Positions 4,745 to 34,151 of a stretch of 64,000 nt of DNA are shown one piece after another. The DNA is taken from positions 1,920,001-1,984,000 of the forward strand of contig CM000208.1 of NCBI GenBank assembly GCA_000002445.1, given 5' to 3'. Below the pieces are notes generated by a model, which was given only the letters and a program-made list of their open reading frames with translations, was not told the origin of the DNA and ran no database searches. The DNA comes from Trypanosoma brucei. Taxonomy: Eukaryota. The position numbers and the translations under genes are program-made. Each line of letters opens with the position of its first letter. Positions within the stretch are counted from its first letter, which is position 1.

Positions 4745-6979
4745 CTACTGGGAAACTGCGAGCCTCTTTAGGTGATCAATAAACACACTTAGAGATGCAT
4801 CATCCGTGTACACCAATTCCTCCTCACTACCGCCGTAACCCCGGCCCCCGTCGCTACCGTAAGAACGGCTCGGATTAATTCTATTGCGAAGAATACGTGC
4901 ATCAGGATCATCTTGGCACACGTAAATAAATCGCGGTGTCGGATACCTACCTCCTACAAGCCTCGCTGCGTCATCAACAGGATACTGCAGGAACTCTTTG
5001 AAGTTCGCATATTCTTCCTGCTCAGCATACCCTGCTTTCTTCCACGCGGCAATTGTGGAGCCCAAGTGGACAAGAACTTCAAAGAAGGTATCAAGAAGAA
5101 GTATGTTATCCGGTTGAATCGCAGCACTATCCAGTGAAACGGGCTGAGGTGGGGCATCCATACGGTAGCTGTACAAAGTCGGTTGAATTTGGATGATTGA
5201 ATCTTGCACGGATGACTTTAGCAGCATAAGACGCAGTATGGTGGTTTCATCAGGACTCGAGTTGAAAACGTGCAGATATCCGGACCGGCGGAGATGAAAC
5301 ATAAACGCAGGAAAGAACACAAACTCTTGTGGAAGACTCAACGAGGAAGGCTGATCCTTGATGTAGGTACCGAATCGGTTCACAAGGCGCACAATTGTCC
5401 TGTCAAGCCACCGAAGGACATCAAACAACGGGGCTGTATCTGCCCGGTGCAACGCCTCACGGGCTAATAAGACAGCGGCCGTCTCCTGATCAAATGACGC
5501 TGCCAGCTCCGGCATACTTGTCACTTGCTGCACCACATGCTTTCGCGTGCAAACACGGACACGCGTCTCGCGACCAATTTCATACTTGGTAACGAACTGA
5601 ACATATCGGAACGGCTGTTTTTGTGCTTCAGGTACCGTCATTGTGTCAAAGTAAATCGCAAAATTCGTTGTGGAATCCATCATGCAGGCGGTCCACTGAC
5701 AAGTGCCCCCCATCCCAATTTCTGAGTCAGCCACCGAGGACGACTTCTTACCCGTACCGACGCACTGTCCAATAACGCCCATAACTTTCCACGAAGGGGA
5801 AGTTATAATGTCCATCGTAACGTTGAGAGCCATTTTCAACGAACCGTCTTCCCTACGCTCAAAGAAACGATCGAGGGACTGGCGGAGTGTTTCCTTCCTC
5901 CATGACTCGTCGTTCAGAATAACGCCTCCCGAAGCCTGGATACACAACTTCATCTCCGCCACACCCGTCTGGTCGAGCGATGCAGTGAAACAACTTAGCG
6001 AGTGCCCGTTTTTCACAATACGCTGCATTAACTTGTCGTAGAAAGCACACGAACTATCCCAGAAGGCGGCGGCAGCGGTGCCGTCACGTATATCAGCATG
6101 CTGACGAATAAATTTCTCCCGCGTTGTTTCTACGGCTATGCCAGGCCCTTCCGTGCATATGCCGGAAATGAAGGCGAGAATGCAAGAGCCGGTGTTGGGT
6201 GACACCATTTCAAGAAAGGCAGATGCTACGGAGAGGGCGGCGCCGGTGCAGCGGAGCGGACGATGTGCTTTTCGTACGGGCCACAAGTCCTGCTGTAACT
6301 CTTGGAAAATGGAGTCCATCGTCTGCTGCAGGCTGGCACGGGTGCCGTAGAACCTCTGCGCATCAGTTATCACACCTTTGAGAGTTTCTACAGTCGCCTC
6401 CTGTGATCCCCGAAACACCAACGAACGTGGATAATCTGTAACACCGCTCAACTCGTGAATTTGCACAGTCGCCCCGTAAGTGATGAGGCACACGAATGCT
6501 CCCTCAGGGATCTTGTTAAATGCACACCCCACAAACTCCCTTAATCCAAAAAGCTCCAGTTCTGTGTCTACACACGTATCCACGACAAAGGCGAAGGTGG
6601 GCGGGTTACGGTCCGCAAAACTCACGTATTCTACTGTCTCGTTGCCTCTCAACAGCTCTTGCGGCAAATCATTGCCCGCCATATAGGCGTAATGTGGCGG
6701 GAAGCTATTTTCCTTGCCGCAAAGAGGGCATCCCCACATCTTTGAGCGGAAGTCAATGCTGCAGTAGGGGTTGACGATTCCACCACATACGCAACGCAGC
6801 GGCTCAGATGAGAGTTCGATGCATGGAGTCTCGATGGGGGCGTAGACGCAGCCGAGTGGGACCACCATCCGCGCCGCGTCGATTCGGTTGGATGGGTACA
6901 AACCCCACGACCATCGGATGGGGTCACACTCAAACACCTGCTCTTCCGGCATTTGCTGTGGTATTCCGTATTGGTCCAT
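4745..6979 (-). CDS. SEC23: COPII coat subunit SEC23 (Sec23/24 zinc finger, trunk, beta-barrel, helical and gelsolin-like regions)
   Basis: The ORF track reports 745 aa ending at 6982, but its first codon is GTG. The first ATG is at 6979 (protein starts MDQYGIPQQ). There is clear end-to-end similarity to Sec23 (zinc-finger CxxC..CxxC, FAFVVDTC, LITYG motifs). I recall T. brucei having two SEC23 paralogues, but which one this is was not determined. Confidence 0.85.
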   Translation of the reverse strand: MDQYGIPQQMPEEQVFECDPIRWSWGLYPSNRIDAARMVVPLGCVYAPIETPCIELSSEPLRCVCGGIVNPYCSIDFRSKMWGCPLCGKENSFPPHYAYMAGNDLPQELLRGNETVEYVSFADRNPPTFAFVVDTCVDTELELFGLREFVGCAFNKIPEGAFVCLITYGATVQIHELSGVTDYPRSLVFRGSQEATVETLKGVITDAQRFYGTRASLQQTMDSIFQELQQDLWPVRKAHRPLRCTGAALSVASAFLEMVSPNTGSCILAFISGICTEGPGIAVETTREKFIRQHADIRDGTAAAAFWDSSCAFYDKLMQRIVKNGHSLSCFTASLDQTGVAEMKLCIQASGGVILNDESWRKETLRQSLDRFFERREDGSLKMALNVTMDIITSPSWKVMGVIGQCVGTGKKSSSVADSEIGMGGTCQWTACMMDSTTNFAIYFDTMTVPEAQKQPFRYVQFVTKYEIGRETRVRVCTRKHVVQQVTSMPELAASFDQETAAVLLAREALHRADTAPLFDVLRWLDRTIVRLVNRFGTYIKDQPSSLSLPQEFVFFPAFMFHLRRSGYLHVFNSSPDETTILRLMLLKSSVQDSIIQIQPTLYSYRMDAPPQPVSLDSAAIQPDNILLLDTFFEVLVHLGSTIAAWKKAGYAEQEEYANFKEFLQYPVDDAARLVGGRYPTPRFIYVCQDDPDARILRNRINPSRSYGSDGGRGYGGSEEELVYTDDASLSVFIDHLKRLAVSQ

Positions 6980-7260
6980 CACTACCCGCCTACTTGTTTC
7001 ACTGGCACTTCTTCCACTAACCCCATGTAGTGAACAGCGGCGTTATACCACCACGCGCCGGACAAACAGAGGTTTGAAAGAATATGTGCATAAGGGCAAT
7101 AAAGAAAGAAAAGCAGAAAACTTTTTTTTTAAAAGCCAATTCCCAAAGGAACAATAACATAAACCACGGAAAACTTGCCTTCCCTTTCGAGGCAAATTAC
7201 ACATTATCCATCCATGAACCACAGCGACAAACACGGGAGTTTTTTTAAATCACTTCCACG

Positions 7261-8016
7261 TCATTTCCCCTTTTGGAAGAACGATCCAAGAACATCGTCC
7301 TCTTCTTCCTTCCCCACGAAAGAACCTCCGGGGTTGGGAGCGCTGCCGGTCAATACGCTTAGTTCAGCGCTTAGCCATGTGGCCAGGGAGCCTCCACCCT
7401 CCAATTTGTTTTCGACCGCTGCCCGCACCGATGCAAGCCATTGTTGGGCCTCTCCCCTCAGAGTGGCAGCGCGTTCGGGAGAGGTTTGAAGCGCACGTAG
7501 CCATTCTTCTTTTGCCTCGTTGTACCGTGACATAAGGCCGGCTATGTACCGCAACTGTGCCGACATCGATGCACCAGCGACCGACTCGCTAGACGGCACT
7601 TCGTCGTTTCTGGCACCGAGTTGATCAATCCACACGCGAGGAAAAATGTTCAGCAATGACCACCACGAGGCCACCTTCGACAACCCCCTTTCGAACTCAT
7701 CACTGTCCGCTGGGCTCAGTGCCCGCACAGCCGTTACCGCTTCAGGTATTACTCTGCTTACCGCCGTCAGTACGCGTCGCTTCCCGGCTTCCGGGACACC
7801 GTTGGCTGCGCATGTGAGGAGGAGCTCGTGTACCACATACAACAACGCGCAGCGTGTGGAGGCACTTGTGGCTGGGTCTTGCATTCGCTCATTTATGGCT
7901 CCCATGATAACGTCTACACTAGAGGCGTGAAGGGCACACCATGTCGCAACACTTATAATGGAACCCGCGGAGCTTCCAACAAGATCCAGCCTGCGATCCA
8001 CCTTTTCCTTGTTCAT
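7261..8016 (-). CDS. CID/RPR-domain protein (RNA Pol II CTD-interacting domain, RPRD/Rtt103-like) with C-terminal coiled coil
   Basis: 251-aa ORF with ATG start. The N-terminal ~130 aa (..IISVATWCALHAS..CALLYVVHELLL..) matches the CID helical repeat pattern, followed by a predicted coiled coil as in RPRD1. Domain call is by eye. Confidence 0.55.
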   Translation of the reverse strand: MNKEKVDRRLDLVGSSAGSIISVATWCALHASSVDVIMGAINERMQDPATSASTRCALLYVVHELLLTCAANGVPEAGKRRVLTAVSRVIPEAVTAVRALSPADSDEFERGLSKVASWWSLLNIFPRVWIDQLGARNDEVPSSESVAGASMSAQLRYIAGLMSRYNEAKEEWLRALQTSPERAATLRGEAQQWLASVRAAVENKLEGGGSLATWLSAELSVLTGSAPNPGGSFVGKEEEDDVLGSFFQKGK

Positions 8017-11230: not shown

Positions 11231-12283
11231 TTACAAGGCTAACTTTTGCTTTCGACGGTTTCCAATAATATCGTATAACGCACTCCTATATTGATCCGCG
11301 GGTCTCTCCTCCTCATCCGGAAATGGGAGTTTGATGGGCACAGCCTTGTCGAGCTCCTCGAAGTCACTCGGGGACGTAAAAGGAGCAAAGTAAGGGTGCT
11401 GCAGAGCCTCCCGCGCCGTTGGCCGCTTGTTGGGATCAAAGACAATACATTTACATATTAAGTCCACGGCGTCTGCGTTGTATTTACTCAGCCGCTCAGG
11501 TAACGGATCTGGGTCAATCGCAGGCAGAGAATCTATGAGTGGCCAAGTTTCTTCGGATTTCAAACTCTCGAGGTCCTCGGCCGATGGCTCGCCAAGGGCG
11601 GCAACAATCAACCCGATTTGGTGCAATGTTGAGTTCCCCGTGAACAAAGGGGAACCGGTAAACAATTCACCCAAAATGCAACCAACGGCCCACATGTCCA
11701 TAGCTGTTGTGTAGCACGTGGACTTCACGAGAACCTCTGGCGATCGATACCAGCGCGTTGCTATGTATTCAGTGAGGTCGTTGTCGCCACCTTGTGTATT
11801 GAAGCAGCGCGCGAGGCCAAAGTCGCCCAGCTTGATGTTGCAGTCTGAGTTCAGAAAAACATTGGCAGGCTTCAAGTCCCGATGAATCACCCCACGGGCG
11901 TGCAAACCGGCAACGGCATAGACAATTTGGTAAGCTACGTATTGCCGCTGTACGGACTCCATGATGTTATGCCGCAGTACAACCGACAAATCAGTTTCGG
12001 CAAGTTCAAATACGAGATAGAGGTCCGTTCCATTGATGGAGCGAATTACATTTAGCAAAGGAACAATGTTGTCGAGCTGCAGAGTGCTAAGGAGCATCAC
12101 CTCGCGGTAGGTTCGTTGCGCGTCTTGTCTATTTCCAAATGCGTCGTATACCTTTTTGATTGCCACTTTCATTTTTGTCACCCTGTCAAGAGCACACCAA
12201 ACGACTCCGTACGCCCCGCTTCCAATGTGGCACAATATTTTGTACCGCTGTTCAATTCGTCCATCGATGCTGAACGACACCAT
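11231..12283 (-). CDS. KFR1: Mitogen-activated protein kinase (ERK-like, TEY activation loop); position and size suggest T. brucei KFR1
   Basis: 350-aa ORF with ATG start. Glycine loop GSGAYGVV, VAIKK, HRDLKPAN, DFGLAR, TEY..WYRSPE all present. The KFR1 name is from my recollection of chromosome 10 synteny, not from a search. Confidence 0.8.
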   Translation of the reverse strand: MVSFSIDGRIEQRYKILCHIGSGAYGVVWCALDRVTKMKVAIKKVYDAFGNRQDAQRTYREVMLLSTLQLDNIVPLLNVIRSINGTDLYLVFELAETDLSVVLRHNIMESVQRQYVAYQIVYAVAGLHARGVIHRDLKPANVFLNSDCNIKLGDFGLARCFNTQGGDNDLTEYIATRWYRSPEVLVKSTCYTTAMDMWAVGCILGELFTGSPLFTGNSTLHQIGLIVAALGEPSAEDLESLKSEETWPLIDSLPAIDPDPLPERLSKYNADAVDLICKCIVFDPNKRPTAREALQHPYFAPFTSPSDFEELDKAVPIKLPFPDEEERPADQYRSALYDIIGNRRKQKLAL

Positions 12284-19148: not shown

Positions 19149-20675
19149 TCAAACCTCCTTTTCTGTAATGAAGATTGACGGATCGCCCTTAAGTGCGCGT
19201 AGCTTTTGCGCAGCCGCAATCTCGATTGAATTGAGTTGCTCGGGTTTGATTACAGATCTCGCGTCGTAGAGAGACGGTAGAGCCCCGGTGGAGGGTGAGG
19301 CACACCGTGAGCTGTGTAGACCGTTACTCTCGGATTGAGTGTTCGACGTTTGTTCTAGTGAAGAAGACATACATTGCTGTTTCTTCGGTAAGTCAGTGCG
19401 GAGTGCATTTTCCTCCAACTTATTTATCTTATTTTCCATCTCCGTGATGGTGCCTAAAAGTGCAACCCAGTTTTGCTCCATGGTTGTGGCGTAATGCTGC
19501 AGGTCCTTGACGGAATAAATCTCGGCTCGTCTCTCTGGTCGCCTCGTCATGAGATTTCGAAGCGCCTTCACTTCCTCCCGAATGTCATCCTCAGGCTTAC
19601 GCTCGTTGACGCCGCGGTATATCAATATGGGCGGTGGTGCGAAGTCATCAACAACTTTTTGCGTGCTTCGCATATCCAGTGTGCCCTGATAAGCCGAGGC
19701 ACTAATCAATAATGACGGATCATAAATGCGGTTTGCCCACTCCCCTCCCATTACCTCGTAGTGCGAGGAAACAATAATGGAGAGCGTTGCTGCCGTCTGT
19801 ACTGCCATCTCTTCATTTCGTTGGGTAAAGGGACAAGGAATGACAGGGGTGCCAAGCAAATGCAACACGCCTAAAACCGAGCGCTGTACCTCGCCGTAAC
19901 GCGTGAAGACGGGCACAAGGAGCTGTGCGGCGTTGGATGTTTCGATTAAATCGACAAGCGGAGAGTTTTCCGAGGCTCTAGGATCAAACGCACCCGGCCG
20001 CGGCTTCAGATTCAGCGCAATCCCGGCTTCACTCACTGCACATGGTATGGAGGTCTCACCAACACGATAGGGAGCTGAGTTTCGAAGTCTAGACACGTCA
20101 CGGCCAACTACAAAAGGAGCAACAAGCTCGGCGGATACGGCGCCAGGCGGAGGTATCCACAGTAGTGCGACGGCAGCACGTGTGCGGATTGCCACACTCT
20201 CCAAAACGCAATATATGCTCGCTGACACAAGCTCAAGAGCGGAGTTCATCTTTCGTATCTTATGGCTGGGGACAGTTCCATTAAAAGTGGCCCTCGGTGA
20301 GCACCCACCATATGAATGGCGTGGGATGGTTGGTGTTGTCATTTGCGTAGCCGGTGAGTGTATGTGATTTTCTTGTTTGATATTGGGAAATGACGTGACC
20401 AACTCCCCTTGTTCCTGCAGGTTCCGTCGCTTTGCGGCCTCTTGACCCCCCTTATCTTGCTTTAGAGCCCCAAACTCCTGGTGAATTGCGGAGCACAACT
20501 CACGTAGGGCTCCTCTAAGCTGAAGGACTTGATGAGTCCCTTCAGCCGTTTCCACCTTCATCTCGTTAACGATATTGTGTATTTCGTCGAGACGGTGTGA
20601 AATAATATCACTAAAGGAACATTGACCTAATGAGGAAGGTGGAAATGCGTGTCGACAACTATAACAAAGCTGCAT
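19149..20675 (-). CDS. GAF-like domain protein with C-terminal coiled coil (hypothetical)
   Basis: 508-aa ORF with ATG start. The central segment GETSIPCAVSEAGIALNLKPRPGAFDPRASENSPLVDLIETSNAAQLLVPVF..VLGVLHLLG follows the GAF ligand-binding consensus (G..G...LN....DPRF...S.L.VP.....V.GVL.L). No PDE catalytic or cyclase motifs are present. Confidence 0.5.
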   Translation of the reverse strand: MQLCYSCRHAFPPSSLGQCSFSDIISHRLDEIHNIVNEMKVETAEGTHQVLQLRGALRELCSAIHQEFGALKQDKGGQEAAKRRNLQEQGELVTSFPNIKQENHIHSPATQMTTPTIPRHSYGGCSPRATFNGTVPSHKIRKMNSALELVSASIYCVLESVAIRTRAAVALLWIPPPGAVSAELVAPFVVGRDVSRLRNSAPYRVGETSIPCAVSEAGIALNLKPRPGAFDPRASENSPLVDLIETSNAAQLLVPVFTRYGEVQRSVLGVLHLLGTPVIPCPFTQRNEEMAVQTAATLSIIVSSHYEVMGGEWANRIYDPSLLISASAYQGTLDMRSTQKVVDDFAPPPILIYRGVNERKPEDDIREEVKALRNLMTRRPERRAEIYSVKDLQHYATTMEQNWVALLGTITEMENKINKLEENALRTDLPKKQQCMSSSLEQTSNTQSESNGLHSSRCASPSTGALPSLYDARSVIKPEQLNSIEIAAAQKLRALKGDPSIFITEKEV

Positions 20676-20897: not shown

Positions 20898-21794
20898 TTA
20901 CCAATCAATAATGAAATCGTCGGTGTACGTTTTTTCTGTTCCCTCAAGTACGTTTTCTGGGGAACCCACCAAACCCTTGTCATCTTCCTTTTCACCAACC
21001 GCTCCTTCAGCAGGTAGTGGCAAACTTTCCACCATATCCGACTTCTGCGCGTGTGACTCCTCCTTGAAATCAAAACTAAACTCAACATCTGCATTCGCGG
21101 TCCCTCCGGGATCTGTTGCCACTTCTGAAGTGGGAAGAAGTTGCAGAGTGCCTGCCTCCAGCTGACGGAGTGTTTCCTCTTCTTCCTTGTCTAACTTACG
21201 GTTCCGCGCCTGTTGTCTTTTCTCCTCCCTTTTCTTCAGGCGGGTGTTGAAGGTTGCGAGATCTATACTCGTCCGCGATGCCAAAGCGGCGCGTACATCA
21301 GCTGGTCGCCTACGAAGTTCGCGGTGGTAAAGCCGCTTAACCTCATCGCGGGATTTGTCCGTGTATAGAACTGCAATGGCATTGAAGTCGGTTCCATACT
21401 GTGAGAGGAATTTATAAAAGTCTACCAACTCTTCTTCTGTCCAACTAAATCGCGATCGCTTTCGCCAACCGAACAATTTTTTTGCGTTTTCTTCCTCCTC
21501 ACTATCTTCGTCCATCTCTTCCTTCTGCTCCCTGTCATCATGATCTCCCTCATTTTTTTTCACGGCAACTGCTCGATGTTGCGTTCTTGCCGTCATCACG
21601 AGCTTTTGATTAGCCTGTATCGCTTGCCGTATGGGTCGCTGCTGGTTTGGTGGTAACGTCGTTGGTGGAAGCTGCTCCACGGGAGTGCTTGACAGCGCTT
21701 GCAGGGGAATATCATTGTTTAGGCACGGAACTGCGCCGTGCTCGTCATTCTCATCAGTAGGATTTGGCGGAAAATCGAAGTCACTGTAATCCAT
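20898..21794 (-). CDS. Myb/SANT-domain protein, TFIIIB B'' (Bdp1)-like extended SANT
   Basis: The track's first codon (at 21884) is non-ATG. The first ATG at 21794 gives MDYSDFDFPP.., 298 aa. The SANT segment FSWTEEELVDFYKFLSQYGTDFNAIAVLY..RDEVKRLYHRELRRRP closely fits the Bdp1 SANT signature (W[ST]xEE..F..AL..GTDF..IA.L). There are also acidic and basic coiled regions. Confidence 0.5.
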   Translation of the reverse strand: MDYSDFDFPPNPTDENDEHGAVPCLNNDIPLQALSSTPVEQLPPTTLPPNQQRPIRQAIQANQKLVMTARTQHRAVAVKKNEGDHDDREQKEEMDEDSEEEENAKKLFGWRKRSRFSWTEEELVDFYKFLSQYGTDFNAIAVLYTDKSRDEVKRLYHRELRRRPADVRAALASRTSIDLATFNTRLKKREEKRQQARNRKLDKEEEETLRQLEAGTLQLLPTSEVATDPGGTANADVEFSFDFKEESHAQKSDMVESLPLPAEGAVGEKEDDKGLVGSPENVLEGTEKTYTDDFIIDW

Positions 21795-22347
21795 CAGTGT
21801 TTTGCATAATGCGTAAGAGGTGGGTTCTAACAGGTACGCGTGGGGTGTGTTCCGGGATAACAACACTTCTACTGTGGAACGCAATCAATAGACAACAATT
21901 TCTTAACGGACTTAAAGCGGATTTTTTTTCCAATGAAAAATAAGCAAAAAAAAAATAAGCAAAGAAGGGAAGAAATATTGTACCCCGAGGGAAAGGTGGA
22001 ATGACATAGACAGTTATGGAATATATGTATATATTCATGTCACCCCTGCGGAGTTATTGGACACGGGCGACCGATTCCCTGGGACCCAGCTGGTGATAAA
22101 ACATTTCGACAACTGCGCAAAACTGAAAACTTGTACTTAACTCAAATCGTGGAAATCTGCAGACCCCCCTTAATCATGTTTGCCAATATGGGTAGTCGTT
22201 TGTGTAAGCAACAGGTAAGAAAAATCAAAAGAAGGAGGGAGGAGGGAGGGGGTCACTTTGGAAAGAAAGAAGAACAACACTAAGTGAAAGTATGAGCGAA
22301 AAAAAGAAGAAAAGAACAAAAAACGACGACAGCGCAGTTCCAACAAA

Positions 22348-23073
22348 CTAAATACCTCCCCTTTGGTGCTTCGCTGATGTCAGTGGGACAAATCGTACTC
22401 CACCGTGGTTAGTGGAGGAGATGTGACCGTCCATATCCTTCGTGTAAACGCGCAAAGTTTGTGCCTCGCCCTCTCTTCCAACAGGAATAACGAGGCATCC
22501 GCCTGGCTTTAATGCATCAATATAAACCTGCGGCACTGTTGCCGCAGCAGCTCCAACATGAATAACATCAAAGTCAGGCACTTTCTGCCCGAGAAGTCCG
22601 GTTATATTCCTACCATCTCCTTCAATGAACTTAATTCGCCCTTCCTCCACCCACGACCGAAAATGCTTATTCACCACTTCTGTTGATCGAACCACCAGTT
22701 CCGAGATGTGTTCTACTCCGATTACAGTTCCTCCCCTACCACTGCAAAGTTCCGCAAGGACGGCTGTGAGGTATCCGCTTCCGCTACCAACGTCCAACAC
22801 CGTGGCTGGCTTTACGCCCTCTGGGGTTCGGAGGAGAAATGGAGCGATGATCTCCACCATAATGGCGTGCATGTGGGGTGCACTGATGGTTGCGCCGTAT
22901 CCAATGGGAACGGGCTGGTCGCTGTATGCCACTTCGGGTGGCGAATGCGGCAAAAACCAGCCGCGATCAACACGACGAAAGGCCTCGATAACGGCAGGCG
23001 TGACTAACAGCGAAGCCGCTTCTAAACGTTGAATCATACCGGCATTGGTTACACCGGAACATGTCCATGCCAT
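22348..23073 (-). CDS. PCMT: Protein-L-isoaspartate (D-aspartate) O-methyltransferase (PIMT/PCMT)
   Basis: 241-aa ORF with ATG start. SAM-binding motif I VLDVGSGSGYLTAV, plus post-I/II/III regions and the N-terminal GMIQ..L pattern typical of PIMT. Confidence 0.85.
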   Translation of the reverse strand: MAWTCSGVTNAGMIQRLEAASLLVTPAVIEAFRRVDRGWFLPHSPPEVAYSDQPVPIGYGATISAPHMHAIMVEIIAPFLLRTPEGVKPATVLDVGSGSGYLTAVLAELCSGRGGTVIGVEHISELVVRSTEVVNKHFRSWVEEGRIKFIEGDGRNITGLLGQKVPDFDVIHVGAAAATVPQVYIDALKPGGCLVIPVGREGEAQTLRVYTKDMDGHISSTNHGGVRFVPLTSAKHQRGGI

Positions 23074-27265: not shown

Positions 27266-29221
27266 TCAGGTATGGGCACGGGTTTCCAACAACAGCTTTG
27301 GTGGCATGTTCAACTGGAAGTTGGCGCCTCGCTGGACGTACTGACCAAGAAGATCACACAGCTCTGCGTTGTGCGCGCGAAGGCTATCCGTTTGTTCAAT
27401 CAAGGCTTTGCGCTGCTTTAACTGTTTAAGGTAACGGTCAAGTCCCTTCTCAAGAAATCCCCAAACCCGTCGGTGATCCACTGGCACGGAGTCGCCCATA
27501 CGTGTCCAATACTCCTTCTCCGCTATGCGCTGCCGTTCCCCTTGCTTTGCCTTCTCTGTCTGCGTGTTTTTCTTGTCAGATTGTTTCTGGCTCTCTAATT
27601 TTTGTGCTTGTTTCTGCGTTCGGGAATTGAGGAACGCCTGGAGCGCACTAACAGCGTCCTGTGGACTGATGAGGGTTGCTTCTCCGTCCTCATCGTCGAC
27701 AATGAAGAACTGTAACATATCTTCCATTTCCTCAGTCGTGCGTATTTGCAGTGTGGAGAGAATGGCCTCAATGTTAGCCCGCTCTTCAGTTATCCCATTA
27801 ACCATTTCAATCGCCTCTAATACATTGTTGTCCGCAATAAACGGTGCCTGTTGTTTCAGGATCCCGAGCAGCATAACGGCTTCCTCGGACAGTTCAATTT
27901 CTTCGTCACTACTAACGGCGTCTTCTTCCTCCACAACATTCGTCAACTGATCTTCGTGCCAGTAGTTCAACTCCGGGGGTTTCCACGGCATGCCGAGAAT
28001 ATCTTCAAATATAACACGATCTGCCTGAAGGCATTTCTGCACCAACTGAGTGTTTTTCTCCTCATGCATTCGCCACAACCGACGGTACTTCTCCCTATCC
28101 GCTTTTTCAAATAACTGAAATTTTCTCTGTAGGTCACGGTACTGTCCTGCAACACGATGCAGCTGGGCAGTGAGGTCCTTGTTAGCGCGTTGGTATCGCT
28201 TCTCAGACTCTGCGTAGCGGGAAACGAGGGAGCTCAACGTGTCCTGCAACCGCGCCAACTTTCTCTTGTTCAGAGTCTGTGTGTTTTTGTTTTCCTTTAT
28301 GCGCTCGCGAAGTACCTGTAGGTTATAGCTCAACCGCTCCCCATTGAGGAGAAACTCCGCCTTACACCGCTCAAGTTCCTCCATTAGGGAATGAATCTCC
28401 TTCAAATGCTCCCGCTTAATCTCGTTGTACTCCTCTCGACTGTCGCAGTGCTTGTCATCCATCTTCTTCTGCGCCTCTAAAATCTTTGCTTCCCTCTTCT
28501 TACGGTACTCCGTCTCGCGTGTGCGGCGTACCTTCATGAGTTGCTGAATCTCCTCATTATATTTTGCGATACGGCCCTGCCGTTCCTGCTCGTACGTGCT
28601 CTCCACTTCCCGAAGCTTGCGCGTGTAGCTGTCTAGATACTTTTCCGTCTGATTGCGCATCTCCTCGATAAGACTTCTTACATCCTCTGCGTTCCGTCGC
28701 AACGCCACTACGAACTCTTCCTCCCGTTCTTCTAACTGTAACCGGAGGGCCTCGATGAGACGATCCTTTACTGCAATCACCTCTTCGCAGCTCTTCTGTT
28801 GGTCGTCGAGGGCGCGCTGCATGTCGTGGGGGACGTCCAGTTTATAAATAGACTCGAACCTTAATTGAATTGCACCGCTCCGGGCTTCGTTTTCCTCCGC
28901 ATCTTCCTCCCGCTTCTTCCGGCGCTCTATCAGTGCAACTTCTTCACGGCTCCGACGATCACTTTCATTTGCACATGCAGCGACATCCCAGTTGGTTAAC
29001 GCGCTGTGCGCTTTATTATAAACCTCCGCCATCTCTTCACGTACCTCTTGAATGCGTTGCCCTCCCAAATCTTTTGGTGCATCATCCTCTTCCACTGTTA
29101 TAGTGTTTTGTATCTCGTCGCCATCTCCGTTCATGCAGCGCATCATCTTTAAGACGCGCTGTCGGCGTGCGGCGATGCGCTGCTCCTGCGACTCATCGGC
29201 TTTGTCGCCTCCCGTCTCCAT
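27266..29221 (-). CDS. Large coiled-coil protein (possible axonemal / dynein-regulatory-complex-type protein)
   Basis: 651-aa ORF with ATG start. Heptad-rich over ~400 aa, with a globular C-terminal third. The flagellar assignment is speculative. Confidence 0.55.
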   Translation of the reverse strand: METGGDKADESQEQRIAARRQRVLKMMRCMNGDGDEIQNTITVEEDDAPKDLGGQRIQEVREEMAEVYNKAHSALTNWDVAACANESDRRSREEVALIERRKKREEDAEENEARSGAIQLRFESIYKLDVPHDMQRALDDQQKSCEEVIAVKDRLIEALRLQLEEREEEFVVALRRNAEDVRSLIEEMRNQTEKYLDSYTRKLREVESTYEQERQGRIAKYNEEIQQLMKVRRTRETEYRKKREAKILEAQKKMDDKHCDSREEYNEIKREHLKEIHSLMEELERCKAEFLLNGERLSYNLQVLRERIKENKNTQTLNKRKLARLQDTLSSLVSRYAESEKRYQRANKDLTAQLHRVAGQYRDLQRKFQLFEKADREKYRRLWRMHEEKNTQLVQKCLQADRVIFEDILGMPWKPPELNYWHEDQLTNVVEEEDAVSSDEEIELSEEAVMLLGILKQQAPFIADNNVLEAIEMVNGITEERANIEAILSTLQIRTTEEMEDMLQFFIVDDEDGEATLISPQDAVSALQAFLNSRTQKQAQKLESQKQSDKKNTQTEKAKQGERQRIAEKEYWTRMGDSVPVDHRRVWGFLEKGLDRYLKQLKQRKALIEQTDSLRAHNAELCDLLGQYVQRGANFQLNMPPKLLLETRAHT

Positions 29222-29802: not shown

Positions 29803-30162
29803 TAACAGCACGCACTCCCACAACTTAACTTAACTTTCCTCCCGCCACCAAACCACAGCGCCCCCACCCTTTCATTTTCTTTTTTCCCCTTATTCTCCAC
29901 TTTTCTTTTCTTTTCTTTCCTCCTTCTTTCTTCTGTTTCTTCATTTAACAAAACTTCATTCGCTCACCCGCTCATCTTTTCTTTCATTTTTTCTTTCCTT
30001 CCTTTTTCCTCTGACTACGAGACCAAATTCAAATTTTAGCATATGGAATAAAAGGCAACAGTAAGCTGGATGATGGAAAAAAAAAGCAAAACAAAGCAAC
30101 GTGGAGGCGGATTCTTGTTCAGTTCTTCAGGCGATGAAGCGACAGACACAATTAAAAAAACA

Positions 30163-30180
30163 CAACAACAACAACAACAA
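30163..30180. repeat. (CAA)6 microsatellite
   Basis: Read in sequence (cacaacaacaacaacaacaa). Confidence 0.75.
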
Positions 30181-31105
30181 TAACCAAAAGAACAAAAAAA
30201 GAACAAAAAAAAAAGACTTATTTCCTCCTTGCCTATTTATTGGACTCCTTCTTTTTGTGTGTTCTTACACATGCAACATCTCACCCACGTACGCATGTAT
30301 ATAATAAGAATATGGTTGGAACTGTATAGGTAATGTTGGCGGCTTCAAATTACCTTTTGCTCTCAGCCATTAAAAAATTGGTTTTGAAATTTTGACACCA
30401 CATGAACAAATAAACAAACAAACAGACAACAAACAAATAAATAAATGGAAGACAAAAACAGAAGTGGCACTCTATTACACACGGCCGAAGAGAGAAAAAA
30501 AGGTAGAGGATACTACCTCACGACGTACGAACAAACAAAAACACACATTTACACCCGCACTTGCGCAACAGTTTATATGTGGTTTTGCATGTGCACAATT
30601 TGCATGCATTCTTCTCGCATGCATTCCTTTCGTACGATTGCTTCCCACACAACACTGCAGCAGTCCATGCCGTAGCTCTAAACTCCGAATCGCAACATCT
30701 TCCCTGTACATTTCCCTTCCCTTCCTTCTGAGCTCTTTGTCTCTCTTTTTTTTTTCCCTACCCTTTCCTTCGCTTGCCTTCATACGCATTTTCCCCCTTC
30801 ATTCATTTACGCACGTCACCGGTTCCTGTTTCTTTTGCGTTCACGCTTCCGTTCCTGCTTTTTTTCCTTTTTTGCACTCCACAGACGGTAAGTTGGAGGG
30901 TGAAGGAAAATGTACGACTGCTAAGGACACATAATGAAGGAATGAGCTGTGCGATGCGGGATGAAAAGGAAAGACGAGATGGAGTATTTCTATATGTTTC
31001 ATTTTGTATGTGATGCCTGTTTGTAACACAAGCGTTTGTTTTTTTTTCCATTTTTCCATTCTTCCCTTATTTTCATGCGCTCACCTCTCGCGTTATTGTT
31101 GTCGC

Positions 31106-31128
31106 TCCTCTCTCTCTCTCTCTCTCTT
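31106..31128. repeat. (CT)n microsatellite (~10 units)
   Basis: Read in sequence (ctcctctctctctctctctctct). Confidence 0.75.
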
Positions 31129-31781
31129 CATTTAACTACAGCACGTTCGCAAAGCACTAAATAACAACTAGCGCGGTAGCTGCAGAAATATCGTCGCTGG
31201 CGGCAAGGACTAAAGTGAGTGCAAGAAAGAATACAAAAACAAAGAAAAAAACTGTGCAAGCGAAAGAGAAAGAAGACTTCTCAAGCGCTTGTCTTCCAGT
31301 CAAAGGGAAAATGCTGCCTAACACCTCGCGGAGATGTCCACGACGGTGCCTCAATTCAATGTCTCGAAGTAGTTAATCAAGATGAAGCGGTAGAGGACCT
31401 ATCAGTGTGAAAAATTGCCGTTTTCAGCTTCCATTCATCCTTCCTCATAGTTTTCTTCAGCACTTCTTCCCCCTTTTTATCTTCTCCTCGACATGTATAC
31501 GCATACGCAGCGCTATGATAAGTAAATTGATGGCTTTATTTCTTCGCGGGGGATTTTTTTTTACTTGTCTTACCTGTGACTTGCCCCATCGCGCGTCTGC
31601 TTCCCATCCATTCAAGGAGACCTTATCCCCCTCTGGAACAAAATATTGTAGGAAATAAACCGTGTCGGTGGGCCAACCAGTGCAGTCTCCCTTCTCCACA
31701 GCCTATCATGAGCTCTTTTCTTCACTTTCCACCTCAAATTTCTGTTTTGGCTCACTTGTATTTTTTGTACGTGTGCGTACG

Positions 31782-31785
31782 TATA

Positions 31786-31820
<35 letters not shown>
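31782..31820. repeat. (TA)n microsatellite (~19 units, one G interruption) followed by (TG)n
   Basis: Read in sequence at 31781-31830. Confidence 0.8.
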
Positions 31821-31824
<4 letters not shown>

Positions 31825-31961
31825 GTGTATGGGAATATATGAATATATTTATATGCATTATGAGCTTCTCTCCTTGAAGCTGCCGGCAGTTTCCCATTCA
31901 ACTGGCAGCTACTGCCGGTGCTGGATGGACCAAATATCCGAACAAACTCCCCTTTCCTTTT

Positions 31962-34151
31962 CTATATGGCCACATTCAGGTACCCATTGGGCATAGTAAA
32001 AAGATCAGTGACTGGAGGCGACACGCTGCTCACCACTGAGCCGCCATCACTGCTTCGAAGCGCAATATCAGGTGACGGCGAGAGACCGTCGACATCATTG
32101 CCATCTGTATCTTCTCCAGGCGTGCAATCCGCGAAGAGACTTTTGCAGCCAACACTGCTGCTCTCCTGCGAGAGGTACTGCGAGATGGCGGCATTCGGGT
32201 AGCGTCGCTGCATTTCCTTAACAACTGGGAGGTACGCCTGAGCTGCCACTGCAAGGGCCGCATCCGCGTAGCCCACCAGGCTTTGCCTCAATAATGCGTG
32301 GTAGAGAGTAACGATAACTTCTGGTGGCACCGCGATCTTTAACGAGAGGCGACCCACCGTATTTGCAACGGCGAACTCACCACACCTGAGCCAGAAGAGC
32401 ATCAAATGTGTGATGCCCTCGTTGATCATTAGCTGAATGGCCGAGGTGGGACCAACAGTGGGTGACCGGCTGGTTTGAGTGACATGCTCATTCGGACAGT
32501 ACCTACAGTAACAGTGGAAATGCGCCCTCTGAGGCGTCATTGATGGAACACTGCCCGCAGGAAGGTGTGTCTGGCTGCAATATTCGCAGAGCAGCACTTG
32601 ACGACCAGCGATTTTGTATGCGTGCATCGTCTGGTATGGGGCCGTATTTGGGTGGAGAACCGCAGAACATAGAGAGGGAGACTCTGTTTCTTCATTACCA
32701 ACGTCGCACGAATGATGATTCGGTCGGGGCTCGTTGTACGCAAGCTCCGTAAAACAGTCGAAGGCAGCATTCGCTACTAAAGTGTTCAGTGCCTTGGTTG
32801 CGAGTTTTATGAGAGGCGCAATAACCAGCGGGGCAATTTGTGATATATTCCCAGGTGATTCGTGGGCGACAGCAGCAATTACTCTGAACACCGCCAGCTG
32901 GCTCTCCGCGCACGATGCCCGTGCAGCCAACGACACCGCTACCTCGACAACATCAAGGTCATGCACCCGCTTTTGCAGTGTGGCATCTTTCTCTAAGGCG
33001 CTGGTCGTGACCTGACATAGGAGCCGCTCCAGGCATTCAGAGTTGGGAATGAATGAAACGGCAACACGGAATGGCAAAATATCACTGCGCCCATAGGTGA
33101 ACACCGGGACGTGCAGCAGCAACCAACCAGCTGTTTCCACTATTCCTTGGCAGCAGGAGAGCAGCCGGAGTTGTTCCTCACCGAAGTCCCTCTGATGCAA
33201 CGCAACGGACGGGTCTCTCATGGAGGACTTCCCCATATCTATATGGTGCCTTCTTCCGTTGTCTAACACTGGCACAAGTTCGACTATAACACGGGCAGTT
33301 TCCACCACCAGCGGACCCAATTCACTCGGCAGAGCAATAGCCTGCGACAGGGCTAGGTCACGCGCCACAGTGAGTGACTTCCCTAGTAGTTCGACGTAGA
33401 GCGAAAGTATTGTAGTTTTTACCATCGGATCATAGTTTTCCAGCCACTGATTGAGCTCGTCCAGGACGTAATGGAAGACGTAGTGGATAAACCCCAGCGA
33501 GGCGCGGACAAATGCCACGCGGCCTTCTGATGAAACGTTTCCCCAATCCGAGCAGTACTGGATCAGGGGGTAGTATATAAGGGACGCCATCACAAGACCG
33601 TAGGGAGACCGCTGTTCCATCAGCCGAAAGCTCTCATCTATGCAGTCGAGGAGATCCCGGAGAGACATTCGATCGCTTGGGCTACAGTCCCCTCCCACAA
33701 GATGGGCACCGGCGAGCTCTTCAATCAGCTGCTGCGATGGCACCACCCGCACAACATGAGCGGCATTCGTCCACCCGCCATTTCCGAGCCTGTAATACGT
33801 TTCGGTAGGATCAATGCTTCCCCTTGCACTGGCAACGGCAACCATGAGACGGGCGGGGTACAAGGGACACAATACATGTGCGTTATTCCGTGGTCGGGTT
33901 CTCAGACAAACATCCATGTTGTCGTACGCGAGTATGGGGCTGCGTATGACCACCTGCGGTGTATCGAAAAGTTGCTCATCTATTTCCTGGCACTTCCGGC
34001 ACAGAGTGTAGCGGCATCCCTCCTGCGCACAGTGATACCACTCTGTCATGGATGGGTGAGCCGAGGCTTTGCAGATAGAGCACAGCAGACCCGCTACCGG
34101 GTTCGGGAATGCCTGCATGGGATGTTCCGGGTGGGAACCATGACGCAACAT
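31962..34151 (-). CDS. Hypothetical protein with Cys-rich zinc-finger-like N-terminal motif
   Basis: The track ORF (827 aa, to 34445) begins at a non-ATG codon. The first in-frame ATG at 34151 gives MLRHGSHPEHP.., 729 aa, and sits just downstream of a pyrimidine tract. Cys cluster CSICKASAHPSMTEWYHCAQEGCRYTLCRKCQ, and a second Cys/His cluster near the C-terminus. Confidence 0.5.
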   Translation of the reverse strand: MLRHGSHPEHPMQAFPNPVAGLLCSICKASAHPSMTEWYHCAQEGCRYTLCRKCQEIDEQLFDTPQVVIRSPILAYDNMDVCLRTRPRNNAHVLCPLYPARLMVAVASARGSIDPTETYYRLGNGGWTNAAHVVRVVPSQQLIEELAGAHLVGGDCSPSDRMSLRDLLDCIDESFRLMEQRSPYGLVMASLIYYPLIQYCSDWGNVSSEGRVAFVRASLGFIHYVFHYVLDELNQWLENYDPMVKTTILSLYVELLGKSLTVARDLALSQAIALPSELGPLVVETARVIVELVPVLDNGRRHHIDMGKSSMRDPSVALHQRDFGEEQLRLLSCCQGIVETAGWLLLHVPVFTYGRSDILPFRVAVSFIPNSECLERLLCQVTTSALEKDATLQKRVHDLDVVEVAVSLAARASCAESQLAVFRVIAAVAHESPGNISQIAPLVIAPLIKLATKALNTLVANAAFDCFTELAYNEPRPNHHSCDVGNEETESPSLCSAVLHPNTAPYQTMHAYKIAGRQVLLCEYCSQTHLPAGSVPSMTPQRAHFHCYCRYCPNEHVTQTSRSPTVGPTSAIQLMINEGITHLMLFWLRCGEFAVANTVGRLSLKIAVPPEVIVTLYHALLRQSLVGYADAALAVAAQAYLPVVKEMQRRYPNAAISQYLSQESSSVGCKSLFADCTPGEDTDGNDVDGLSPSPDIALRSSDGGSVVSSVSPPVTDLFTMPNGYLNVAI

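Follow-up and report, generated by a model that had tools for sequence, protein, structure and literature searches.

A non-catalytic GAF-domain protein of Trypanosoma brucei with flanking coiled coils and replaced cyclic-nucleotide hallmarks

The gene and the layout of its product

We analysed a 64,000-nucleotide stretch of the Trypanosoma brucei genome (assembly GCA_000002445.1, contig CM000208.1, positions 1,920,001 to 1,984,000 of the forward strand), referred to here as the window, in which positions are counted from the first letter. On its minus strand, a complete open reading frame (ORF) runs from ATG to stop at 19149-20675 and encodes 508 amino acids plus the stop. The product is 100% identical to the T. 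brucei TREU927 protein deposited as XP_823017, EAN78189 and UniProt Q38AI1, where it is named "hypothetical protein, conserved", and also 100% identical to TEOVI_000841900 of T. equiperdum. The protein has a GAF fold, no catalytic domain and an architecture that is conserved across its family, in which the residues diagnostic of cyclic-nucleotide binding have been replaced in a lineage-specific manner. Two alignments underlie these results: one of 22 kinetoplastid orthologues collected by homologue searches, and one of 39 sequences that includes distant members of the family.

From the N-terminus, the protein consists of a CxxCxH motif, a coiled coil, a disordered linker, the GAF domain, an extension of about 50 residues, another coiled coil and a helix at the C-terminus (all encoded on the minus strand). 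The N-terminal motif, M-Q-L-C-x2-C-x-H-x-[FY]-P (residues 1-12; 20640..20675), was recognized by its conservation across Euglenozoa, from euglenids to Trypanosoma: C4 and C7 are present in 33/33 sequences, H9 in 31/33 and P12 in 29/33. AlphaFold 2 (AF2) draws it as a small beta-bridge of low confidence. The motif might form a zinc knuckle, possibly one shared by the two chains of a dimer, or else undergo dual S-acylation. As annotated, the orthologues of T. b. gambiense (523 residues) and T. congolense (574 residues) are longer at this end, by 15 and 66 residues respectively; the extensions precede the conserved MQLC/MNLC start and look like mis-called start codons.

Long, coiled-coil-like helices follow at residues 23-90 (20406..20609), where AF2 places helices at 23-38 and 45-90 with a predicted local distance difference test (pLDDT) score of about 60-77. 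Residues 36-75 were borderline in a crude heptad test, and the helices gave weak matches to coils in the PDB. They are separated from the GAF domain by a low-complexity, poorly conserved linker (residues 91-130; 20286..20405), variable in both sequence and length in the alignment, with pLDDT below 50 at 90-127.

Beyond the GAF domain lies an extension (residues 319-366; 19578..19721) with the pattern YDP...Y...LD.R...K..DDF...L-x-Y-R, whose conservation equals that of the GAF core (R354 in 39/39 sequences, L351 in 36/39, P320 in 34/39 and D343 in 33/39). AF2 predicts this segment to be disordered (pLDDT below 50), and neither family nor profile searches found a Pfam or PDB match to it. It could serve in the docking of partners or in autoregulation. 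The second coiled-coil-like helix (residues 387-435; 19371..19517) carries the motif K-D-L-H-R-x-A-x-x-M-E-x-N-W, in which E400 is kept in 37/38 and W403 in 36/37 sequences. AF2 models a helix at 389-427, the strongest heptad signal of the protein lies at 387-426 (above the 95th percentile of shuffles, in the same crude test), and there were weak matches to coil families, including DUF4795 (E = 0.009). The last conserved element is a helix at residues 478-502 (19170..19244) with the pattern P-E-E...E..AL.RL..LGVD...F. It is modelled by AF2 at 478-494, and E485 (30/34), L492 (28/37) and F502 (28/33) are well kept, while D498 is invariant among the 22 kinetoplastid orthologues. Modelling the core alone (residues 128-378) in AF2 brought no improvement over the full-length model, and the core model was set aside.

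A sequence-only reading of the locus had described a stand-alone GAF-like domain with a C-terminal coiled coil and no phosphodiesterase (PDE) or cyclase catalytic domain. The absence of these domains was borne out: searches of the T. brucei protein against Pfam and NCBIfam gave no match at E<=10 to these or to any other catalytic domain, and the Pfam families listed for its 39 relatives include no PDEase_I, no cyclase and no further output domain. The C-terminal coil also stands, given the AF2 helix, the heptad signal and the weak coil-family matches, but the layout was incomplete, in that it missed the longer N-terminal helix or coil, the C-x2-C-x-H motif, the post-GAF extension and the C-terminal helix.

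A divergent GAF domain

The GAF domain spans residues 137-318 (19722..20267) and contains, in order, alpha1, beta1, beta2, (beta), alpha, beta3, alpha, beta4, beta5 and a long alpha5. On its own, the T. brucei sequence matched no PDB sequence, no Pfam GAF entry at E<=10 and no relevant NCBIfam family; a family profile was therefore needed. Searched against PDB sequences, the profile of the 39-sequence alignment matched PDE2A (3ibj, E = 4e-7; 1mc0, E = 1.4e-6), the second GAF domain (GAF-B) of PDE10A (2zmf, E = 5.9e-6, in one stretch of 28.7 bits) and the cyclase CyaB2 (1ykd, E = 2e-3). Five of the 39 members reached Pfam GAF unaided, the best at 2.5e-6. Two independent fold searches also recovered the GAF fold, and the model shows a central antiparallel beta-sheet backed by helices in the order alpha-beta-beta-alpha-beta-alpha-beta-beta-alpha, its N- and C-terminal helices lying on one face. 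By both fold and sequence profile, the central segment belongs to the GAF superfamily (clan of Pfam PF01590).

The two motifs on which the domain had been proposed, DPR[FA] and V.GVL.L, are both correctly placed by the alignment. DPRA (residues 231-234; 19974..19985) occupies the loop position of the canonical GAF "DPRF", with D231-P-R-A opposite the "ADPRF" of PDE10A when loop gaps are allowed. The sequence VLGVLHL (residues 267-273) forms beta5 in the profile alignments, opposite VIGVVQMVNK of PDE10A and VIGVAELVNK...F-x3-DE of PDE2A. Together with a degenerate NKFDE signature (G275-T276...F283-x3-N287-E288), it makes up a segment alignable to PDE2A at residues 267-288 (19812..19877). From composition, the chance expectation is 0.001 for VLGVLHL and 0.008 for DPRA. 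V.GVL.L is well kept in orthologues; in D-x-R, the D and the R are each found in 13/23 trypanosomatid-like orthologues.

It is reasonable to assign the domain to the PDE/cyclase (NKFDE) lineage of GAF domains, with a PDE-type origin, since, among solved structures, those closest to it in sequence are the cyclic-nucleotide-regulated GAF domains of PDE2A and PDE10A. The landmarks shared with PDE-type GAF domains include the G-x-x-G-x-V-x-x-TG-x-x-x-N helix, the "DPRF" position, the L-x-x-P of beta4, the V-I-G-V of beta5 and F-x3-[DN]-E.

Family and distribution

When 1.84 billion cluster representatives were searched exhaustively with an HMMER profile, only 35 proteins came back at E<=1e-3. The trypanosomatid members belong to Trypanosoma, Leishmania, Porcisia, Phytomonas, Angomonas and Strigomonas. 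Among the members from other lineages are the diplonemids Diplonema papillatum and Namystynia karyoxenos and the euglenid Keelungia, and the diplonemid and euglenid proteins retain the full architecture. The same search gave no significant match beyond this euglenozoan set and no paralogue in T. brucei. The orthologue survey that had been proposed thus recovered kinetoplastids, diplonemids and a euglenid, and from these searches the family appears to be ancient, to span the Euglenozoa and to be restricted to them.

Replacement of cyclic-nucleotide hallmarks

The signature N-K-x(n)-F-x3-D-E, which reads N515-K516...F522-x3-D526-E527 in PDE2A GAF-B, is reduced in T. brucei, where it maps to G275-T276...F283-x3-N287-E288. 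The reduced form is nearly uniform among trypanosomatid-like sequences, with G275 in 23/23, S or T at 276 in 20/23, and both N287 and E288 in 23/23. Of the 16 other sequences, only those of Keelungia, Namystynia and Diplonema and two more have a complete NKFDE, and these five read L-I-N-K...F-x3-D-E together with a canonical G-[VI]-[AV]-G-x-V-x-x-T-G. In an intermediate group, D-E is retained but N-K is gone.

Other pocket positions follow the same division. The G-I-A-G loop is replaced by S209-[IV]-P211-C212 in trypanosomatid-like sequences (S-I-P-C in T. brucei); position 212 is Cys in 22 of 23 trypanosomatid-like members versus Gly in 15 of 16 others, and position 272 is His in 22 of 23 versus Gln in all 16 others. 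P211 falls at the position of PDE2A A459, whose backbone NH contacts the cyclic phosphate. A Thr seven residues before the Pro of beta4 is common to PDE2A GAF-B, PDE10A GAF-B and CyaB2; we take it to be the ligand-contacting T492 of PDE2A. Its equivalent is Asn248 in all 23 trypanosomatid-like sequences, and Thr occurs there in only 1 of the 39 family members. The equivalents of PDE2A F438 and D439 are V189 and V190 in T. brucei. By alignment, then, the phosphate- and ribose-contact residues of the G-I-A-G loop and of the Thr at -7 are not those of cyclic-nucleotide-binding GAF domains. What T. brucei retains is D-P-R at the "DPRF" position, F-x3-x-E and the TG...N motif.

This pattern suggests that the family descends from a GAF domain of the NKFDE (PDE/cyclase) type, and that the trypanosomatid lineage exchanged positions associated with cyclic nucleotides and then held the exchanges invariant. 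The trypanosomatid pocket thus looks re-specified under selection rather than decaying. By motif and contact residues as aligned, the domain is outside the cyclic-nucleotide-binding NKFDE subgroup, though its ancestors would have been inside it. The proposal that the protein is a cyclic-nucleotide sensor fares poorly on these grounds (a reduced NKFDE, S-I-P-C for G-I-A-G, Asn for Thr and Val-Val for F438/D439).

Comparison with known systems

The GAF domains of PDE2A and PDE10A, the first GAF domain (GAF-A) of TbrPDEB1/2 and those of CyaB2 share the fold of the T. brucei domain, and PDE2A, PDE10A and CyaB2 are its best profile matches. Long N- and C-terminal helices flank it, as in dimeric PDE regulatory segments, and basal members of the family carry the full NKFDE, as PDE-type GAF domains do. 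Unlike tandem-GAF PDEs, the protein has a single GAF domain and no PDEase or cyclase domain; unlike PDE-type GAF domains, the trypanosomatid members have G-[ST], N287, P211, C212, N248, H272 and V189/V190. PDE-type GAF proteins have nothing that corresponds to the CxxCxH motif or to the post-GAF extension.

The radial-spoke protein RSP2 of Chlamydomonas (PDB 7jrj, chain I) combines a GAF domain with Dpy-30. Fold similarity through the GAF domain is its only link to the T. brucei protein, which has no Dpy-30 match and the order coil-GAF-coil; there is no relationship at the sequence level. The GAF-type free methionine-R-sulfoxide reductases (fRMsr), enzymes of about 160 residues with conserved catalytic cysteines in the pocket, are likewise fold neighbours with no sequence-profile match, and the sole pocket Cys of our protein, C212, is specific to trypanosomatids.

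Non-catalytic GAF proteins are already known, namely RSP2, fRMsr and T. brucei Hyp3. Hyp3 (Tb927.4.670), from the stumpy-induction RNA interference (RNAi) screen in T. brucei, is a GAF-domain hypothetical protein with no stated catalytic domain (PMC4403954). The sequence-only reading had known kinetoplastid GAF domains only from the PDEs, a view that Hyp3 makes outdated, as does the UniRef entry of the Strigomonas orthologue, already named "GAF domain-containing protein". Identity with Hyp3 was rejected, as Hyp3 is encoded on chromosome 4 and our gene on chromosome 10, between TbMAPK1 and DRC1.

Within the second coil, T-M-E-Q-N-W-V-A-L-L (residues 398-407; 19455-19484, minus strand) resembles "EMESNWVSLV" of human SPF27/BCAS2. 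The match covers a 40-residue coil only, at E = 0.11 and 0.017 against the PDB. Identity with SPF27/BCAS2 was rejected: T. brucei SPF27 is a separate gene, Tb927.11.14150, encoding a 24.5 kDa protein (PMC8682746), the Pfam families listed do not include BCAS2, and our protein is absent from the mass spectrometry supplement tables of the PRC5 purification. The resemblance is probably that of a coiled-coil look-alike.

Genomic context

Reading along the window, the minus-strand genes before the GAF gene encode a Sec23-type protein (4745-6982), a TEY-type mitogen-activated protein kinase (11231-12283), UFD1, a PCI protein, ESF1 and TMEM128. After it come a Bdp1-like Myb protein, a PCMT methyltransferase (22348-23073), two small ORFs and an NYD-SP28/DRC1-type protein (27266-29221). 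Four of these genes anchor the order to published identifiers: TbSec23.2 is Tb927.10.7740 (PMC9429938), TbMAPK1 is Tb927.10.7780 (PMC5053586), the methyltransferase is Tb927.10.7850 (PMC5976210) and DRC1 is Tb927.10.7880 (bioRxiv 10.1101/2020.03.09.984815). The nine slots from 7790 to 7870 are filled exactly, and from this order we therefore infer that the GAF gene is Tb927.10.7830.

The product of the adjoining gene (20898-21884, minus strand) is a Bdp1-like protein of the extended-SANT type (Myb_DNA-bind_7, E = 5e-22). The gene shares synteny with LmjF36.6530, which encodes Bdp1 in L. major, and by the same gene order would be Tb927.10.7840; its listed ORF begins with TTG, and the real ATG is probably further downstream. 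LmjF.36.6540, an identifier guessed for the Leishmania counterpart of the GAF gene, turned out to be an unrelated hydrolase.

The window has 25 ORFs of 250 residues or more; 24 of them lie on the minus strand, and the sole plus-strand one (193-1011) overlaps a minus-strand ORF. This bias fits a single polycistronic transcription unit running roughly from Tb927.10.77xx to past 7880. Because neighbouring genes share such a trypanosome polycistronic unit, their identities carry no functional implication for the GAF gene. The GC content falls to 0.41 at 30001-32000, compared with about 0.46-0.54 elsewhere in the window, and the adjoining bins have a strongly negative GC skew.

Discussion

We consider it somewhat more probable than the alternatives taken together that this protein is a non-enzymatic, probably dimeric, sensor-adaptor, in which the GAF domain binds a ligand or peptide other than canonically bound cyclic AMP (cAMP) or cyclic GMP (cGMP), and the flanking regions provide the output. 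In such a scheme, the ancestor of the trypanosomatids would have acquired a retuned GAF pocket (G-x-[AV]-G to S-I-P-C, Gln to His272, Asp to Asn287, and a variable residue to Asn248), which would have stayed fixed in trypanosomatids ever since. A pocket both retuned and held fixed would probably bind something other than cAMP or cGMP in the canonical mode, so that the ligand may be a different small molecule or a peptide. The long alpha1 and alpha5 helices could relay occupancy of the pocket to the coils on either side and to the conserved extension; coils, extension and terminal motifs could act as output by binding partner proteins. By analogy with tandem-GAF PDEs, we infer that the protein forms a homodimer through its coiled coils.

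Several points weigh against this interpretation. The case for dimerization and signal transmission is one of analogy; the coils were assessed with a crude heptad test; and the AF2 model, built from only 22 sequences, is of moderate confidence (mean pLDDT 60, GAF core 70-88). The contact residues were mapped from HMMER alignments, which are unreliable in loops, and from a list of PDE2A contacts. NKFDE is neither strictly necessary nor sufficient for cyclic-nucleotide binding (PDE2A GAF-A carries NKFDE yet does not bind), so its loss is no proof that binding was lost. Finally, no paper on Tb927.10.7830 was found by gene identifier or accession in the library searched, and the gene was not found in the supplements searched from TrypTag, the CpdA screen and the PRC5 purification.

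The domain could instead be a ligand-free GAF that serves for dimerization or packing in the coiled-coil scaffold of a cytoskeletal or flagellar assembly specific to Euglenozoa, with RSP2, a structural neighbour, and PDE2A GAF-A as its analogues. The coiled-coil-like helices on both sides of the domain, the confinement of the family to Euglenozoa and the lost cyclic-nucleotide hallmarks would all suit such a role. A pure packing module is expected to conserve its surface and helix contacts, however, and not pocket positions, and the residues fixed in trypanosomatids lie in pocket-lining motifs (the G-I-A-G loop and the T492 and E512 equivalents). Neither the protein nor its relatives have a Dpy-30 or other radial-spoke domain in Pfam. 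We regard this explanation as rather unlikely.

As a free-standing PDE-type GAF, the protein might be a cAMP or cGMP receptor that converts cyclic-nucleotide levels into changes in protein-protein interaction. Its closest solved relatives, the PDE2A, PDE10A GAF-B and CyaB2 domains, point in this direction, as do the complete NKFDE of euglenid and diplonemid orthologues and the D-P-R, F-x3-x-E and TG...N retained in T. brucei. Against it stand the G275, [ST]276 and N287 that replace N-K and D in trypanosomatid-like members, the Asn at the -7 position, the Pro at the A459 position and the Val-Val pair. In addition, the CpdA RNAi screen for cAMP effectors describes four CARP hits in its main text, none of them a GAF protein, and our gene is absent from that paper's small supplements. 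The orphan cAMP receptor is on balance disfavoured by this residue pattern, and we give the cyclic-nucleotide reading a low probability.

A related scenario, to which we attach only slim probability, is that of an ancestral euglenozoan small-molecule receptor that lacks enzymatic output, signals solely by way of its coiled coils and partner contacts, and had its pocket re-specified in trypanosomatids (Ser209/Pro211/Cys212/Asn248/His272) for a new ligand. That ligand could be a non-canonical nucleotide or nucleoside, or else heme, a metal or a redox cue. Were it cAMP or a related purine, the protein would supply one missing downstream effector of trypanosome cAMP signalling, a system in which protein kinase A is unresponsive to cAMP.

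It is very improbable that Cys212 and His272 make the domain a GAF-type enzyme or a redox or metal sensor, whether fRMsr-like or heme-binding like DosS/DevS. The GAF domains of fRMsr and DosS/DevS are among the best structural matches, and both residues are fixed at pocket-lining positions in 22 of 23 trypanosomatid-like members; the fold scores of these matches are, however, no better than those of dozens of other GAF domains, and profile searches found no fRMsr or DosS match at the sequence level. Since Gly and Gln take the place of C212 and H272 outside trypanosomatids, such chemistry would not be the function of the whole family. It is hardly credible that the likeness to GAF domains arose by chance or from faulty structure prediction, for although the T. 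brucei sequence alone matches neither Pfam GAF nor a PDB entry and the mean model pLDDT is only 60, the domain was recovered by the family profile and by both fold searches.

Few cAMP effectors are known in trypanosomes, and within trypanosome PDEs only the GAF domains are proven to bind cAMP, which makes a non-catalytic GAF protein a natural candidate receptor. An open ligand screen, with an NKFDE-bearing diplonemid or euglenid orthologue alongside, would be more useful than an assay for cAMP only. The analysis also defines previously unannotated conserved motifs, namely the N-terminal CxxCxH, L-x-Y-R354 and M-E-x-N-W403. While its practical significance is modest for now, the protein provides a testable lead for trypanosome signalling.

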